Part shown: one piece after another, positions 3,764-9,688 of the stretch
Layout of the letters: each line of letters starts with the position of its first letter
Position numbering within the stretch: the first letter of the stretch is position 1
Assembly (NCBI GenBank): GCA_965248925.1
Contig: CBDFLE010000006.1
Coordinates: forward strand, 3,392,001 to 3,456,000
From: Candidatus Multivoradales bacterium
GTDB lineage: Bacteria; Acidobacteriota; Thermoanaerobaculia; Multivoradales; J023
Length of the DNA: 64,000 nucleotides
Reading direction: 5' to 3'
Position numbers and translations under genes: made by a program
Notes under the pieces: generated by a model
Databases searched by the model: none
Seen by the model: the letters and a program-made list of their open reading frames with translations, nothing else
What the model was told of the DNA's origin: nothing

Positions 3764-3871
3764 CCCGCTCCAGCTGGCAGCATCCGCAATGCTAGACTCC
3801 GGGCCGCTTTAGAGGTTTTTCTCGGACCCAATCTGGCTGGCGACAGAAGCTGGCCGAGTGAGGTGTGGACG

Positions 3872-5431
3872 ATGGCGGACGACTCTGCGAAGGCTACCGC
3901 GCCGGCTAGCCGCGGCTGGCTCGACAAGGCGCTCAACGGGATCGAAGTGGCGGGCAACAAACTGCCGGATCCGGCGGTGCTGTTTCTATTGCTGATGTTC
4001 TTGGTTTGGATTGTCTCGGCGTTCCTGGCGCCGATGGACTTTTCGGAGATCGATCCCCGTACCAATGAGTCGATCGAGGTCAAAAGCCAGCTCAGTCCGT
4101 CGGCGGTGAGCACTTTCATGACCAGCATGATAAGGACCTTCACCGGCTTCCATCCGCTCGGTGTGGTGCTAGTGGCGCTGCTCGGCGTTGGTGTGGCAGA
4201 GCACACAGGTTTCATCAATGCCTGCTTGAAGGGCATGCTGAGCTTCACCCCGAGGACGCTTCTGACGCCCATGCTGGTGCTGGTGTCGATCGTCAGTCAC
4301 ACCGCGGCAGATGCTGGATATGTACTGGTGATCCCCCTCGGCGGGGTCATCTTCTATGCTGCTGGCCGTCATCCTTTGGCGGGTATCGCCGCCGCCTTTG
4401 CCGGTGTTTCGGGGGGGTTCTCGGCCAACTTTCTCATTTCTGGTATCGATCCGCTGCTCTCGGGTCTGACCCAGACTGGCGTCGACATTATCAATCCGTC
4501 TCACCTGGTCAATCCCGCCTGCAACTGGTTCTTCACCGCTGCGTCGAGCGTGCTGGTTATCCTGATCTGCTGGTACATCACCGACCGGATTATCGAACCG
4601 CGGCTACAGGCCACTGAGATCGACGGCGATCCAGACGAGATGCCGAAGATGGAACGGCTGACCAGCGCTGAGCGTCGTGGCATGTGGGCTGGCCTGGCAA
4701 CCTTGGTGGCCGGCCTGCTGGTGTTGCTGCTGGTAGCCCTACCCGAGGGCTCGGTGCTGCGCTCGCCGACGTCTGGCGGTTTGGCCGATCTCGATGCTTC
4801 GCTGATGCGGATGATCGTGCCCTTGATTTTCCTGATGTTCATCCTGCCGGGGATCGTCCACGGCTACGTCTCCAAGTCGATCAAGAATCATCGCGACATC
4901 ATCAAGGGTATGTCGAAGGCGATGTCGACGATGAGCTACTACCTGGTGATGGCCTTCTTCGCCTCGCTCTTCATCTACTCCTTCAGCCAGTCGAACCTGG
5001 GGGTGTTGTTGGCCATCAAGGGTGCTGATTTTCTCAAATCCCTCAACGCCCCAGCCCAGGTGACGATCGTCGGCATTATCCTGCTGGCGGCGTTGGTCAA
5101 CTTGCTGGTGGGTTCGGCTTCGGCCAAGTGGGCCTTGTTGGCGCCGATTTTCGTGCCGATGCTGATGCAGCTGGGGCTGTCGCCCGAGCTTACCCAGGCG
5201 GCCTACCGTGTCGGCGACTCGACCACCAACATCGTCACCCCGCTGATGCCCTACTTCCCCCTGGTGGTGGTGTTCTGCCAGCGTTACGTTAAGAAAACCG
5301 GTATCGGCACCGTGGTCTCGCTGATGTTGCCTTACTCGGTGACCCTGCTGATCACCTGGACGATCTTCCTGCTGATCTACTGGGGCGTGGGCTTCCCTCT
5401 GGGCCTCCAAGCCTCCTACGTTTATCCCTAG
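3872..5431 (+). CDS. abgT: AbgT family transporter
   Basis: GNKLPDP, GRHPLAG, GVSGGFSAN and YRVGDSTTNIVTP motifs; many TM helices; ATG at 3872 follows GAGGTG. Confidence 0.93.
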   Translation: MADDSAKATAPASRGWLDKALNGIEVAGNKLPDPAVLFLLLMFLVWIVSAFLAPMDFSEIDPRTNESIEVKSQLSPSAVSTFMTSMIRTFTGFHPLGVVLVALLGVGVAEHTGFINACLKGMLSFTPRTLLTPMLVLVSIVSHTAADAGYVLVIPLGGVIFYAAGRHPLAGIAAAFAGVSGGFSANFLISGIDPLLSGLTQTGVDIINPSHLVNPACNWFFTAASSVLVILICWYITDRIIEPRLQATEIDGDPDEMPKMERLTSAERRGMWAGLATLVAGLLVLLLVALPEGSVLRSPTSGGLADLDASLMRMIVPLIFLMFILPGIVHGYVSKSIKNHRDIIKGMSKAMSTMSYYLVMAFFASLFIYSFSQSNLGVLLAIKGADFLKSLNAPAQVTIVGIILLAALVNLLVGSASAKWALLAPIFVPMLMQLGLSPELTQAAYRVGDSTTNIVTPLMPYFPLVVVFCQRYVKKTGIGTVVSLMLPYSVTLLITWTIFLLIYWGVGFPLGLQASYVYP

Positions 5432-5450
5432 GCGCTTCCCAGATCGATTC

Positions 5451-5490
5451 AAAGCCCGCTTGTCCGATTCGTCGGCTGGCGGGCTTTTTT
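5451..5490 (+). terminator. Intrinsic terminator of abgT
   Basis: AAAGCCCGC...GCGGGCTTTTTT stem plus U tract 20 nt after the stop codon. Confidence 0.85.
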
Positions 5491-5579
5491 CGTTGAACTG
5501 CTGATTACAAACAGCTTCGCCGGGGTTCGGAGAAAGATCTAATCTGTAATGTTAGGCGTAATTCTGTATTGCTCTAATA

Positions 5580-5968
5580 GCGGTCGACGGGGGAAGGCCC
5601 GAGGGGTTTGCGAGGGGGAGGAAGGGCTGGGGCGGGAGAGAGACACTCTGATCAGACCCGGAGTATCGGGTCGAAGGCTCGCGGAGGGGTTTGCGAGCCG
5701 CAAAAGGAAGTCGGCGCTCGGGGCTAGCGCGCCGACTTTGATTGAGGGGGTCGCTGATTTGGCGATTTTCCCCCCTCACAGACCTGGGGTCTGAGTGAGA
5801 GAGCGCGGCTGAGCCGCAAGAGTGGGTGTGAATCCGGGAACTCTTCGGGGTATGCCAGGGGGCGATGGGGGTCGCGGGGCGAAAGAGAGAGCGAATGCTA
5901 GCGACCGCGGAGAGTTCCTGGATTAGTTTTTTGAGAAAGGCCCTCGCGCTGTGCGGGGGCCTTTTTTA
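5580..5968 (+). ncRNA. Candidate structured non-coding RNA of unknown family (ends approximate)
   Basis: At least seven hairpins in tandem, G-U pairs favouring the + strand, its own terminator, and no credible ORF. Confidence 0.6.
5936..5968 (+). terminator. Intrinsic terminator, + strand (may also serve glyQS)
   Basis: AAAGGCCCTCGC-GCTGT-GCGGGGGCCTTTTTT; the T-G pair is a wobble on + but a C-A mismatch on -. Confidence 0.8.
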
Positions 5969-7543
5969 TTTGGCTAGAGCAGCGCGCACCACATCGAGCG
6001 CTTCGCCGACCGCGATGCGGTCTTGGCGGCGGTCGTCGCGATGGCGGATAGTCACCGTATCGTCGACCATCGTCTGGCCATCGATGGTCAAGCAATAGGG
6101 GGTACCGACCTCGTCGTGACGAGCGTAGCGCTTGCCGATCGAGTGCTGCTCGTCGTATTTGGCATTGACCCCGGCGGCGAGAAAGCGCTCGACGATGCCG
6201 CGGGCAACCTCGGGCATGCCGTCTTTCTTCACCAAAGGCAAGATACCGGCCTTGATCGGCGCCAGGCGAGGATGCAGGCGCAGCACGGTGCGAGCCCCTT
6301 TGCCCTCGGCATCGGCCTCTTCTTCGTCGTAGGCATCGCAGAGCACCGCCAGCACTCCGCGGGTGGCGCCCGCCGCCGGCTCGACGACGTGGGGCACATA
6401 GCGCCAGCCGTTCTTGCCGGTGTCGGGGTCAACGGCTTGGGGATCGAAGTAGTTGAGCTTCTTGCCCGACCCCTCGCTGTGCGCCTTGAGGTCGTGGTCG
6501 GTCCGCGAAGCGATGCCTTCGAGCTCGTCCCAGCCCCAGGGAAAGCGGTAGTCGATATCGAAACAACCGTCCGAGTAGTGCGCCAGCTCGTCTTCGTCGT
6601 GTTGGCGAAAGCGCAGGTTGTCCTTGTTTAGGCCAATGCCCCGCCACCAGGCCAGGCGCTGCTCTTTCCAGTATTCCAACCATTTCGGCCCTTCGCCGGG
6701 GGGGACGAAGAACTCCATCTCCATCTGCTCGAATTCGACCGAGCGGAAAATGAAGTGCTCGACGGTGATCTCGTTGCGGAAGCTACGCCCCATCTGGGCG
6801 ATACCGAAGGGCACCTTGATGGCGGTCGATTGCAGCACGTTGGGGAACTGCACGAACATCGCCTGGGCGGTCTCTGGCCGCAAGTAGGCGGTGGAATCGG
6901 CCGTCGCTTGCTCCACCCGGCGGCGGATCTCGGCATCGTCGGCGCCGGCTTCGATCGCCGAGCGCACCTGGTTGATCACCTCGCCGATCGGATCCACCGG
7001 CCCCAAGCTAGTGCGCAGCATCAAGTTGAATTGGCGTTCTTCGCTGAGGAAAGGGGAGCCGCAGTTCGGGCAGCCGTAGCCCCGGTCGCCAGCGGTGGCG
7101 CCGTGCAGGGTCTTGCCTTGGCGGCGGAGTTCCAAACCCTCGGTGCGCTCGACTCGTTCGAGCGCCACCTTGGCGCGGCCCTTGTCGGCCAGGGTGATTG
7201 GCGCCGCTTCGCCTGCGGTCAGCCGTGGCGCCTTGTCGGCGCGAAAGCGCTCGCCACAGACCTTGCAATCGACCAGCGGGTCGGAGAATCCCGTCAGGTG
7301 GCCGCTCGAGCGCCAAACGTCGGAGTGCATGATGATCGAGGCGTCCAGGCCGACCACGTCTTCGCGGCTGTGGACCATCGCTCGCCACCACTCGTTCATC
7401 AGATTGCGCTTAAGTTCGGCGCCCATTGGGCCGTAGTCGTAGGCCGAGCGCAAACCGCCGTAGATCTCGGAACTCTGGTAGACGAATCCACGGCGCTTGG
7501 CCAACGAGACGATTTTCTGCATCGAGACGGCGGATGGGCTCAC
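5966..7543 (-). CDS. glyQS: Glycine--tRNA ligase, alpha2 dimeric type
   Basis: SLAKRRGF, YDYGPMG, YLRPETAQ, SFRNEIT, EFEQMEMEFF, ELEGIASR and SIGKRYARHDEVGTP motifs; GTG start at 7543 behind GGAAAGG. Confidence 0.95.
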   Translation of the reverse strand: MSPSAVSMQKIVSLAKRRGFVYQSSEIYGGLRSAYDYGPMGAELKRNLMNEWWRAMVHSREDVVGLDASIIMHSDVWRSSGHLTGFSDPLVDCKVCGERFRADKAPRLTAGEAAPITLADKGRAKVALERVERTEGLELRRQGKTLHGATAGDRGYGCPNCGSPFLSEERQFNLMLRTSLGPVDPIGEVINQVRSAIEAGADDAEIRRRVEQATADSTAYLRPETAQAMFVQFPNVLQSTAIKVPFGIAQMGRSFRNEITVEHFIFRSVEFEQMEMEFFVPPGEGPKWLEYWKEQRLAWWRGIGLNKDNLRFRQHDEDELAHYSDGCFDIDYRFPWGWDELEGIASRTDHDLKAHSEGSGKKLNYFDPQAVDPDTGKNGWRYVPHVVEPAAGATRGVLAVLCDAYDEEEADAEGKGARTVLRLHPRLAPIKAGILPLVKKDGMPEVARGIVERFLAAGVNAKYDEQHSIGKRYARHDEVGTPYCLTIDGQTMVDDTVTIRHRDDRRQDRIAVGEALDVVRAALAK

Positions 7544-7880
7544 GATACGACCTTTCCAGTGCTGTACGGCGCTGTTTGGTGCTGGCCCGAGCCGTCTCAA
7601 AGCAGCTCGGGCTGGTGGATGAAGGCGCCTTTTTAACACAGGTGTCGCGGAAATTACACAAACGCCTGAAAACAGGCGTGTTGCTCCCCGTCCCGTCCGG
7701 GCCGTCCCGCCCCAGCGAGGATTTCAGTCCATCGCCGACACTCGAGGCTCTGCTTTGGCTGGCAGGGCCGCACCGCCGCGAGTCTGCTGTACCCTAGTGG
7801 AAGAGTCGGGCTGGCCAAGTAATGCTAGCCAAAGATACAGTCCCTTCGCGGCGAGAGATCAGCAGATTGAGTACTTCAGC

Positions 7881-9227
7881 ATGAATTTTCGACTTTCTCG
7901 AATCCCCCGTCGCTTACCGGCTCTCCTCGCTACCCTGCTGCTTCCTTGGCTGGTCGGCTGTAGTGGCTCGCAACCGCCACCGCGACTTCTACCTTTAGTT
8001 GACAGCGCCGCGCGGACGCCGGTGGTGTTGGTGCCGGGAATCACCGGCACCGAGCTGGTCGACTCGACCGGCAAGATTCACTGGGGCAAGGGTGGCAACC
8101 TTTTCGTGCCTCGCGACCGGGGGTACGGACTGGCTTTGCCGCTGGTCGAAGGTGGCCCGGACCAGCTGCGGGCGGGGCAGGTGATAGAGAGAATCTCGGT
8201 AGGCGGGGTGATCAAGAAGCCGGTTTACGGTCCGATCATCGAGTTGCTGCAAGCTAACGGCTACGTTCGTGGCGATCTGTCGTCTCCAGATAGCGATTCC
8301 GACCTCTATTTGTTTGGCTACGACTGGCGCCGCGACAACTCGACCTCGGCGCGGCGGTTGTTCGCGCGACTCGCGGATTTGCGCCGAGCCCGCGGCGAAG
8401 ATCGCCTGCGAGTGACCCTGCTATGCCAGTCCAACGGCGGCCACATCTGCCGTTGGTTGGCCAAGTACGGCAACGCTACCTTGGCCGCAGCCGAGGCTGG
8501 CCGGGGAGCACCGCCAGTCCAGTTCGAGATCGAGCGGATTGTTTTCGTCGGCACCGCCAACGGCGGCTCGATGCGAATCCTGCGCGAGTTGCACCGGGGT
8601 CGCCACTACGTACCGCTAGTGGGTCGCAAGCTGGCAGCCGAGACCCTGTTCACCTTCCCCTCCCTCTACCAGGATCTGCCGGCCTACCGCGACGATCTCT
8701 TTGTTGACCCGGACGGCCAAACGTTGGCGGTCGGTCTCTTCGATGCGGCCAGCTGGCAGCACTACGGCTGGTCGGCTTTTGCCGCCGATGCAGCGCGGCG
8801 GATGGACCGGCGGCCTGATTTGTTTGGTAGCGAAGCCGATCGCCTGCATTTCCTAGAGGACGCTCTAGCCGCTGGCCAAACCATGCAGCGCCTGCTCCAG
8901 CGGGACGTGGCTGGTTTCTCCGTTGGCCGCTACTTCTTGATCCAGAATGTCTACGAGCCGACTCCTGATCGTGCTGTTCTGGTGCGTCAGAAAGACGGTT
9001 GGGAAATGCAGCTCACCGGCGATCCCAAACTGCGTCAGGACACCTATTTGAGTGCCTTGGTGAGTGCGCCGGGGGATGGCCATGCCGCTCAGGCCAGCCA
9101 AGTGTGGCTGTCACCGCAGGAGCTGGCGGTATTGCACGATCAACCCTTCCACATTCTCGGTGAGCACTTCGAGATGATCCTTGATCGGGGCACCCATCGC
9201 CGGCTGCTCGATTTCTTGCTGGAATGA
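7881..9227 (+). CDS. Lipoprotein alpha/beta hydrolase (LCAT/phospholipase-like)
   Basis: Lipobox LVGC; VLVPGITGT, YDWRR, variant nucleophile elbow CQSNGG, GDG and C-terminal His (GEHFEM). Confidence 0.75.
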   Translation: MNFRLSRIPRRLPALLATLLLPWLVGCSGSQPPPRLLPLVDSAARTPVVLVPGITGTELVDSTGKIHWGKGGNLFVPRDRGYGLALPLVEGGPDQLRAGQVIERISVGGVIKKPVYGPIIELLQANGYVRGDLSSPDSDSDLYLFGYDWRRDNSTSARRLFARLADLRRARGEDRLRVTLLCQSNGGHICRWLAKYGNATLAAAEAGRGAPPVQFEIERIVFVGTANGGSMRILRELHRGRHYVPLVGRKLAAETLFTFPSLYQDLPAYRDDLFVDPDGQTLAVGLFDAASWQHYGWSAFAADAARRMDRRPDLFGSEADRLHFLEDALAAGQTMQRLLQRDVAGFSVGRYFLIQNVYEPTPDRAVLVRQKDGWEMQLTGDPKLRQDTYLSALVSAPGDGHAAQASQVWLSPQELAVLHDQPFHILGEHFEMILDRGTHRRLLDFLLE

Positions 9228-9262
9228 CAGCGGGCGGGCCTGACGGTGATTGTGAGACTGCA

Positions 9263-9688
9263 ATGAACAGGACTTCTTTAACCATCGTAGGTTCGCTATT
9301 GGCGGCCGCAGTCGGCTTGCAGGGCTGCGCACCAGGCCCATCGCCCAGCGAGTCGCTGGCGATATCCGAGGCTTTTCTGGACCAGATTGCCGCTGAATTT
9401 GGGCCGTTTCCGATAGCTATCGACGAAGAAGTCGAGATGGTGGCGGTAGATGGCCGGCCGGCGATGCTGGTCTACAACTATCGGCTGGTCGACATGGAGG
9501 CTTCTGAGATCGATGCTAACGCCCTGATTCAATGGACACAGCCGGCTGTGGTCTTGGAGGTCTGTGGTGCGTCGGAAACCCGTGACAACCTGTTGCACAA
9601 GGGTGTCACCTTGCGCTACATCTACCATGACAAGAATCTGAAGCCGGTCGCTTCTTTCGATGTAACTGAGGCCACTTGCGGGCTTTAG
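9263..9688 (+). CDS. Small lipoprotein, possibly GspS/AspS pilotin-like or PA3611-like fold
   Basis: Lipobox LQGC; pattern YNYRLV...VC...GVTLRYIYHD...C; fold resemblance is from recall. Confidence 0.55.
   Translation: MNRTSLTIVGSLLAAAVGLQGCAPGPSPSESLAISEAFLDQIAAEFGPFPIAIDEEVEMVAVDGRPAMLVYNYRLVDMEASEIDANALIQWTQPAVVLEVCGASETRDNLLHKGVTLRYIYHDKNLKPVASFDVTEATCGL

Follow-up and report, generated by a model that had tools for sequence, protein, structure and literature searches.

A G-rich, hairpin-dense stretch between the convergent abgT and glyS genes of a Multivoradales bacterium: a possible young, lineage-specific structured RNA

The abgT-glyS locus

The DNA analysed in this study (64,000 nucleotides from a Candidatus Multivoradales bacterium, hereafter the window) contains the convergent genes abgT (+ strand) and glyS (- strand), which encode an AbgT-family transporter and a dimeric glycine--tRNA ligase, respectively, and are separated by a gap of 534 bp. 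The gap comprises the intrinsic terminator of abgT (T1), an AT-rich spacer, a G-tract module (A), a series of hairpins (H1-H6), a 3' domain in which a long helix surrounds a second G-tract module (B), and a further terminator (T2), which abuts the glyS stop codon (5966-5968) (Table 1). Positions 5580-5968, hereafter the stretch, had been singled out in an initial annotation as a candidate structured RNA.

Table 1. Coordinates of the genes, terminators and structural elements of the abgT-glyS locus
Feature	Coordinates	Strand	Description	Basis
abgT	3863-5431	+	AbgT-family transporter gene	Pfam ABG_transport match, 1.2e-189
T1	5450-5491	+	abgT intrinsic terminator: interrupted G+C stem, then TTTTTT	terminator scan match 5468-5483
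AT-rich spacer	5492-5585		contains TGCTCTAAT (5570-5578)	sequence, motif position
G-tract module A	5586-5650	+	5' module: G runs at 5589, 5603, 5614 and 5629, then GGGAGAGAGA	G-run listing
H1	5655-5672	+	hairpin, 6 bp, loop GAGTAT	
H2	5676-5699	+	hairpin, 7 bp, loop GGAGGGGTTT; contains second GAGGGGTTTGCGAG copy	
H3	5708-5738	+	hairpin, perfect 10 bp, loop TCGGGGCTAGC	
H4	5743-5778	+	hairpin, 8-bp outer stem and 4-bp inner stem	
H5	5779-5793	+	hairpin, 6 bp, loop TGG	
H6	5805-5817	+	hairpin, 5 bp, loop TGA	
3' domain	5831-5924	+	14-bp helix (17 bp with extensions, one G-U) around module B	
G-tract module B	5847-5879	+	GGGG-N7-GGGGG-N4-GGGGG-N4-GGGG	motif scan
T2	5925-5971	+	TTTTTT (5926-5931), 9-bp G+C hairpin, tail TTTTTTATTT	fold energies
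glyS	5966-7639	-	dimeric glycine--tRNA ligase gene	NCBIfam NF003211, 579.8 bits (cut-off 312)

The length of the gap is not in itself rare, since 151 of the 859 convergent gaps of the genome (17.6%) are at least as long, according to crude gene calls. Assembled contigs from four DNA runs (one sample, one study) span positions 4800-6733 and show 0 differences; the stretch is therefore not an assembly artefact.

Several observations concern the neighbouring genes. The closest relatives of the AbgT protein (62-75% identity over the C-terminal 276 aa) belong to Phycisphaerae, Thermoanaerobaculia, Gemmatales, Myxococcota, Acidobacteriota and Gammaproteobacteria, and this scattered distribution suggests that the transporter gene may have spread horizontally. 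The GlyRS ORF (557 aa) starts about 30-36 residues ahead of the position where most relatives align (window 7530-7639), and the listed GTG may lie upstream of the true start codon. Two ORFs adjoining glyS (window 7755-9688; 490 and 154 aa) have no Pfam match, and the 490-aa ORF is conserved beside glyS in 5 genomes of the family (47-57% identity).

Composition, hairpins and folding

The 389 nt of the stretch consist of 164 G, 83 C, 71 A and 71 T. The initial annotation described about a dozen GGGG runs, and we counted 13 runs of at least four G, versus a single run of at least four C. Most G runs thus have no C-run partner, and the outer stem of H4 is the sole place in the stretch where a G run pairs with a C run. 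The predicted positions of G runs include the loops of H2 and H3, the 5' tail and the interior of the 3' domain. The earlier statement that "several" hairpin loops hold GGGG was too generous, as only two loops (H2 and H3) do so. The chain of hairpins itself was found in full: all eight helix pairs are present, including the inner pair GGTCGC (5870) and GCGACC (5906), and the 14-mer GAGGGGTTTGCGAG occurs twice, at 5601 and 5684, as described.

The minimum free energy of the + strand (-190.2 kcal/mol) is far below that of 100 dinucleotide shuffles (-160.5 +/- 5.7; z -5.17), none of which folded as well (0/100). The - strand, however, also folds beyond its shuffles (-145.4 kcal/mol versus -110.4 +/- 5.2; z -6.76). 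The comparison therefore does not favour the + strand, and thermodynamics does not choose between the strands. The - strand folds just as non-randomly, and this counts against reading the stretch as a + strand RNA. In the full-length fold predicted for the + strand, the 5' tail is paired with 5743-5790.

Perfect short hairpins amount to 41 bp within a 400-nt window, a value reached by only 460 of the 159,566 windows of the genome (0.29%), and the level of strand asymmetry (an absolute GC skew of at least 0.33) recurs in 472 of 319,142 genome windows of 350 nt (0.15%). Of the 1151 gene 3' flanks that measure 200 nt or more, the abgT-glyS flank is one of the two most skewed. About 50 non-coding loci of the genome are comparably rich in hairpins (51, based on a crude gene call), and among these the stretch has the highest absolute skew (0.24, followed by 0.23). 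Hairpin density and skew combined are exceptional, while neither feature is unique by itself. The extreme G/C asymmetry of the strands is more than a purely DNA-level palindrome would need.

Two G-tract modules and a G-quadruplex motif

Self-comparison of the stretch revealed that 5605-5643 aligns with 5849-5890, with a best score of 30 compared with 19.8 +/- 2.8 in shuffles. Both aligned copies have four G tracts and agree in these tracts, in the first loop and in an AGAGAGA at the 3' side, but diverge in loops 2 and 3. The motif GGGGTWTGCSAG has four copies in the 8-Mb genome (both strands considered), three of them inside the stretch, and both genomic copies of GGGGCGRRAGAGAGA (2/2) lie within it. 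Direct repeats (D1-D5) are also present, of which D4 corresponds to end sequences common to the two flanking terminators; tandem repeats were not found in the stretch. A search of both strands of the genome for a complementary copy of the repeated motifs returned none.

A canonical G-quadruplex motif (four G tracts, loops of 1-7 nt) occupies 5847-5879, i.e. module B, which is one of only eight four-tract motifs (at least four G per tract, loops of 1-7 nt) in the 8-Mb genome. A second motif, of the G3 type, occurs in the stretch on the same strand. When quadruplex energies were included in RNAfold, a four-layer G-quadruplex was predicted inside the helix (-50.0 versus -48.3 kcal/mol). These data add a new element to the anatomy of the locus, namely two paralogous four-G-tract modules, one in the 5' tail and the other clamped by the 17-bp helix.

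An elaborate version of the RNA hypothesis can be built on this anatomy: a genus-restricted small RNA with two paralogous RNA G-quadruplex modules (one locked in the 17-bp helix) and GGGG-loop hairpins, whose G tracts or quadruplexes would serve as decoys for a C-rich small RNA or for a G-quadruplex- or G-tract-binding protein. This version is highly doubtful in our opinion; were it true, it would represent a stand-alone G-quadruplex-based regulatory RNA in bacteria.

Terminators and the strand of transcription

The claim that the stretch is insulated upstream by a terminator of abgT proved right: T1 folds with -23.3 kcal/mol on the + strand and ends in a U6 tail (its tail on the - strand is UUUGAAUC). 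The U-tailed terminator described at the other end was likewise found. On the + strand T2, with UUUUUU ahead of it and a U6AU3 tail behind it, has a folding energy of -26.9 kcal/mol, versus -18.7 kcal/mol and a tail of UUUCUC on the - strand. Judged by these predicted properties, T2 is clearly built for the + strand, though the sole gene adjoining it is located on the - strand. Since T1 already ends abgT and T2 is strong on the + strand about 440 nt further on, transcription of the + strand between the two terminators would make most sense.

G-U pairs point in the same direction. Beside the helices common to both strands, we counted four G-U and no A-C pairs (4 vs 0), and T2 adds three G-U pairs of the + strand, which are A-C on the - strand. 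The earlier argument that such pairs indicate a + strand RNA is nevertheless weak: against the count of 7:0, base composition alone predicts a ratio of about 2:1, and with p near 0.06 the excess is only suggestive.

The 3' end of the putative + strand RNA deserves separate comment. In Hfq-dependent small RNAs, the 3' module combines a U-rich segment with a terminator hairpin that ends in a poly-U tail (at least 6 U). Each of these features is present at 5925-5971 (UUUUUU at 5926-5931, the 9-bp G+C hairpin and the U6AU3 tail), and the genome encodes Hfq (PF17209, 56.9 bits), so that the region may be regarded as a putative Hfq-binding module. It differs from the module of a typical Hfq-dependent RNA in that the T2 hairpin directly follows the glyS stop codon as well, and its form may partly serve this gene.

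The weak - side of T2 (-18.7 kcal/mol, UUUCUC) is also the starting point of an explanation that places the function on the opposite strand. The region might be an extended 3' part of the glyS transcript, a C-rich and G-poor RNA which acts as a Rho loading (rut) zone, backs the weak - side of T2 and shields abgT from antisense read-through. The - strand RNA is composed of 42% C and 21% G over its 389 nt, the flank is among the two most C-skewed of the 1151, a gene for Rho is present in the genome, and the final ~64 nt of the - strand RNA (complementary to 5580-5643), which are very rich in C, have no pairs in the centroid fold. However, rut sites are typically unstructured, whereas most of this RNA is strongly structured (z -6.76). 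Moreover, the 3' flanks of the genome show no general C bias (mean skew -0.001), 400 nt far exceeds what a rut site needs, the relative L071 described below manages with ~38 nt, and the G-U pairs favour the + strand. We consider a role of the - strand decidedly improbable.

Search for a promoter

The motif TGCTCTAAT, proposed earlier as an extended -10 element, was confirmed at position 5570. The base most conserved in -10 elements is the A at position 2, and TCTAAT of TGCTCTAAT carries a C in its place. A promoter scan revealed no sigma-70-like site in 5300-6100.

The tRNA promoters of this organism have the form TTGACA-N17/18-TAnnAT in 31 of the 48 upstream regions, and these 31 were used to train a promoter matrix; TGn precedes the -10 element in only five of them. 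Upstream of the candidate, the best score of this low-power matrix was 4.3 bits, which is reached by 40% of random 201-nt windows. The genes for RNase P RNA, tmRNA and 6S RNA, however, also scored only 3.2-4.7 bits (3/3 low). As known RNA genes score equally low, the test lacks power, and the absence of a promoter is not implied.

Two further observations were made on upstream sequences. Within 40 nt of the AT-rich spacer (window 5538-5578) there are two copies of TCTAAT (at 5538 and 5573) and four of TAAT, and instead of a -10 element these could form the binding site of a regulator. Four tandem TTGACAGTTTCA-like units, i.e. repeated -35-like boxes, lie upstream of a tRNA-Asp gene (G000:C6:4606520-4606640).

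Distribution in other genomes

DNA searches did not reveal a homologue of the stretch in any of 40 relatives (none of them of the same genus), nor were homologues found in phages or plasmids. Among 400 genomes of the phylum, a DNA search returned only G-rich matches of 24-64 nt, in 15 genomes. Of the two best of these, one (L253) looks coding and the other (L252) falls in a short intergenic gap. The central and 3' parts of the stretch were turned into single-sequence covariance models (R1, 5653-5795; R2, 5828-5927), which were each run against 150 genomes of the order, and the best per-genome E-values (0.019 for R1 and 0.013 for R2) are at chance level. At 198 loci that surround homologues of glyS and abgT, neither nhmmer nor blastn gave a useful result (no match at all with nhmmer).

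Shorter queries gave the same picture. A motif scan of public genome contigs produced 40 scattered single matches in unrelated taxa without wider similarity, an exact 23-mer had 0 matches in such contigs, and none of the 30 single matches of a 16-mer in viral contigs could be extended by nhmmer. A long G-skewed gap behind glyS was absent from the 23 genomes of the family (0/23) and from 27 metagenome loci (0/27), and none of the 23 same-family genomes carries abgT within 1.5 kb behind glyS.

The most informative comparison is provided by a metagenome contig of 1449 nt (L071), on which abgT and glyS converge in the same way (with 75% and 79% identity of the AbgT and GlyRS proteins, respectively) but have only ~38 nt between their stop codons (600-860). 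The presence of ~38 nt in place of 534 indicates that the element is dispensable in this relative. The element is thus either a lineage-specific gain or was lost in the relative represented by L071.

Such a distribution is what one would expect if the stretch were non-functional, lineage-specific filler, which arose by insertion and local duplication between two terminators; the hairpins and G runs would then be by-products of duplicated G-rich palindromic modules, and any transcription would be noise. Besides the lack of the stretch in all other genomes searched and the ~38 nt of the syntenic L071, this explanation is favoured by the visible internal duplications (the self-alignment and repeats D1-D5), by the end sequences shared by the flanking terminators (D4) and by the failure to find a promoter. 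It is also favoured by the ordinary background of the genome, in which 17.6% of convergent gaps are as long and about 50 other non-coding loci are as rich in hairpins. On the other hand, the asymmetry of the stretch is among the most extreme in the genome, and in anything but a very recent insert it should have been lost by drift. Nearly perfect helices, the tuning of T2 to the + strand despite its sole adjoining gene being on the - strand, and a sequence that is identical in the contigs of four DNA runs, and hence no artefact of assembly, also speak against filler. We regard this explanation, the main rival of the RNA hypothesis, as somewhat unlikely.

Coding potential, known families and DNA-level functions

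The ORFs inside the gap have codon scores of -0.06 to -0.35 per codon, versus +0.28 to +0.29 in the flanking genes, and the GC3 of the two longest of them is 0.63 compared with 0.80 in the flanking genes. Three gap ORFs were tested against Pfam and gave no match. A small protein gene was therefore rejected: ORFs of 54-81 aa exist, but with negative codon scores and no Pfam match.

The expectation that no known RNA family would be recognized held. A covariance-model search of the 64-kb window with Rfam 15 gave 0 matches at the gathering score; in E-value mode there were 11 matches, all sub-threshold, the two best of which correspond to terminator hairpins (the top match, 24.6 bits against a cut-off of 50, falls on the T2 hairpin). 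The stretch was also correctly judged to be neither tmRNA nor RNase P RNA, as the genes for these two RNAs and for 6S RNA were found elsewhere in the genome. A further possibility raised earlier, that of a dispersed repeat (REP/MITE-like) with many genomic copies, conflicts with the single copy detected by BLAST and by each of the models R1 and R2. Taken together, membership of a known RNA family, a REP/MITE repeat and a gene for a small protein, readings which the size of ~390 nt (similar to RNase P RNA or tmRNA) and the ORFs of 54-81 aa might bring to mind, can practically be dismissed in view of the Rfam result, the one genomic copy and the negative codon scores.

Alternatively, the stretch might function as DNA: G-quadruplex- or cruciform-prone DNA could bind a protein, or it could impede transcription or replication. 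This is consistent with the rarity of the motif of module B (one of only eight in 8 Mb), with the second, G3-type motif on the same strand, and with hairpins that are equally possible on both strands. An element of the replication origin or terminus was rejected, as the skew minimum of contig C6 lies ~0.7 Mb away and no DnaA-box-like site was found. This location counts against a DNA-level role, which moreover leaves the + tuned terminator and the G-U pairs unexplained and would have to be assigned to a single-copy sequence that is not conserved. We judge a DNA-level element to be very improbable.

Comparison with known RNA and DNA systems

The initial annotation proposed that the RNA might be a multi-site protein sponge analogous to CsrB/Rsm RNAs. 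The candidate does resemble CsrB, CsrC and RsmX/Y/Z in its array of hairpins derived from repeated short modules, its intrinsic terminator and the idea of a multi-site decoy. However, the analogy did not survive closer analysis. A CsrA gene (PF02599) was not detected in the genome (96.9% complete), in a search whose control was positive in 3 of 14 reference genomes. The stretch contains 10 GGA trinucleotides versus 12.6 +/- 2.9 in shuffles, i.e. these are not enriched, and a complete GGA is present in only one of eight loops or bulges. The undetected CsrA gene and the lack of GGA enrichment indicate that the candidate is not a sponge of the Csr/Rsm type.

A closer functional analogue would be RosA of Bacillus subtilis, together with RsaI/RsaOG of Staphylococcus aureus. 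Both are stand-alone G-rich non-coding RNAs of narrow taxonomic distribution, whose G-rich working sites pair with C-rich regions of partner small RNAs; RosA is a demonstrated sponge, whereas the sponge role of RsaI is described as not yet definitively proven (PMC8216469). The candidate resembles them in having its own terminator, and would also do so in its many G tracts if these are unpaired as predicted. It differs in its greater length, in having neither a sequence nor an Rfam match, and in the number of G-rich sites (13 runs of at least four G, compared with the two to three G-rich regions given for RosA). Furthermore, no C-rich partner could be identified for the candidate, and the genome contains no complementary copy of its repeated motifs.

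We know of no helix-clamped G-quadruplex in a stand-alone bacterial small RNA. A literature search on bacterial small RNAs with G-quadruplexes and on small RNAs of Planctomycetes found nothing relevant. With its four runs of at least four G, loops of 4-7 nt and a four-layer quadruplex predicted inside the closing helix, module B would resemble bacterial RNA G-quadruplexes; the known examples are parts of mRNAs and are said to have a poorly understood role (PMC10801317).

The near-perfect clustered hairpins between convergent genes are also reminiscent of REP/BIME and MITE elements. Those, however, are dispersed in many copies, whereas the stretch is unique in the genome and strongly strand-asymmetric.

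A possible young structured RNA

The explanation that we tentatively prefer, with a confidence that falls a little short of even, is that the stretch is a young, lineage-specific non-coding insert from which a structured + strand RNA of ~380-440 nt, ending at T2, is transcribed. Its transcription would start between T1 and about position 5590, either because polymerase reads through T1 or at a promoter that is non-canonical or of the extended -10 type. The exposed G tracts, either single-stranded or folded into RNA G-quadruplexes, might then act as decoy sites that titrate a C-rich RNA partner or a G-tract-binding protein. Hfq would be a plausible helper, given the resemblance of the 3' end to an Hfq-binding module. 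Such a sponge or decoy function is, taken by itself, unlikely. Points in favour of the + strand RNA are the fold beyond chance, the extreme strand asymmetry, the orientation of T2, the G-U pairs, the lack of a coding signal, of an Rfam match and of dispersed copies, the motifs repeated within the stretch, the Hfq gene and the precedent of the G-rich RosA and RsaI. Points against it are the failure to find a homologue, the ~38 nt of L071, the failure to find a promoter, the equally non-random fold of the - strand and the merely suggestive excess of G-U pairs.

The observation reported in the initial annotation is thus confirmed and sharpened, and its interpretation is partly supported and stays a conjecture. 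If transcribed and functional, the element would exemplify regulatory RNAs that are very young and specific to a species. The locus also carries a caution, as an RNA gene is not proven by outstanding fold statistics together with a tidy terminator. It is one unconserved locus and bears on no open question yet.

G-rich and hairpin-rich loci elsewhere in the genome

The survey of the genome brought to light several other loci. Only one further apparently non-coding locus, G000:C5:1901850-1902330 (- strand), contains 12 runs of at least four G. It holds another of the eight four-tract G-quadruplex motifs of the genome, its sequence shows no hairpin array like that of the abgT-glyS stretch, and it could be a Gly-rich gene missed by the gene calls. 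The genome also has identical four-tract motifs in two pairs, at G000:C6:2291579 and 2304933 (~13 kb apart) and at G000:C6:5028024 and 5215058 (~187 kb apart), which points to large duplicated segments. Finally, G000:C5:1995251-2009551 is a run of ~14 kb in which all windows are non-coding and contain 6-9 perfect short hairpins apiece (36-57 bp); it looks like a long palindromic-repeat array, possibly a CRISPR array.
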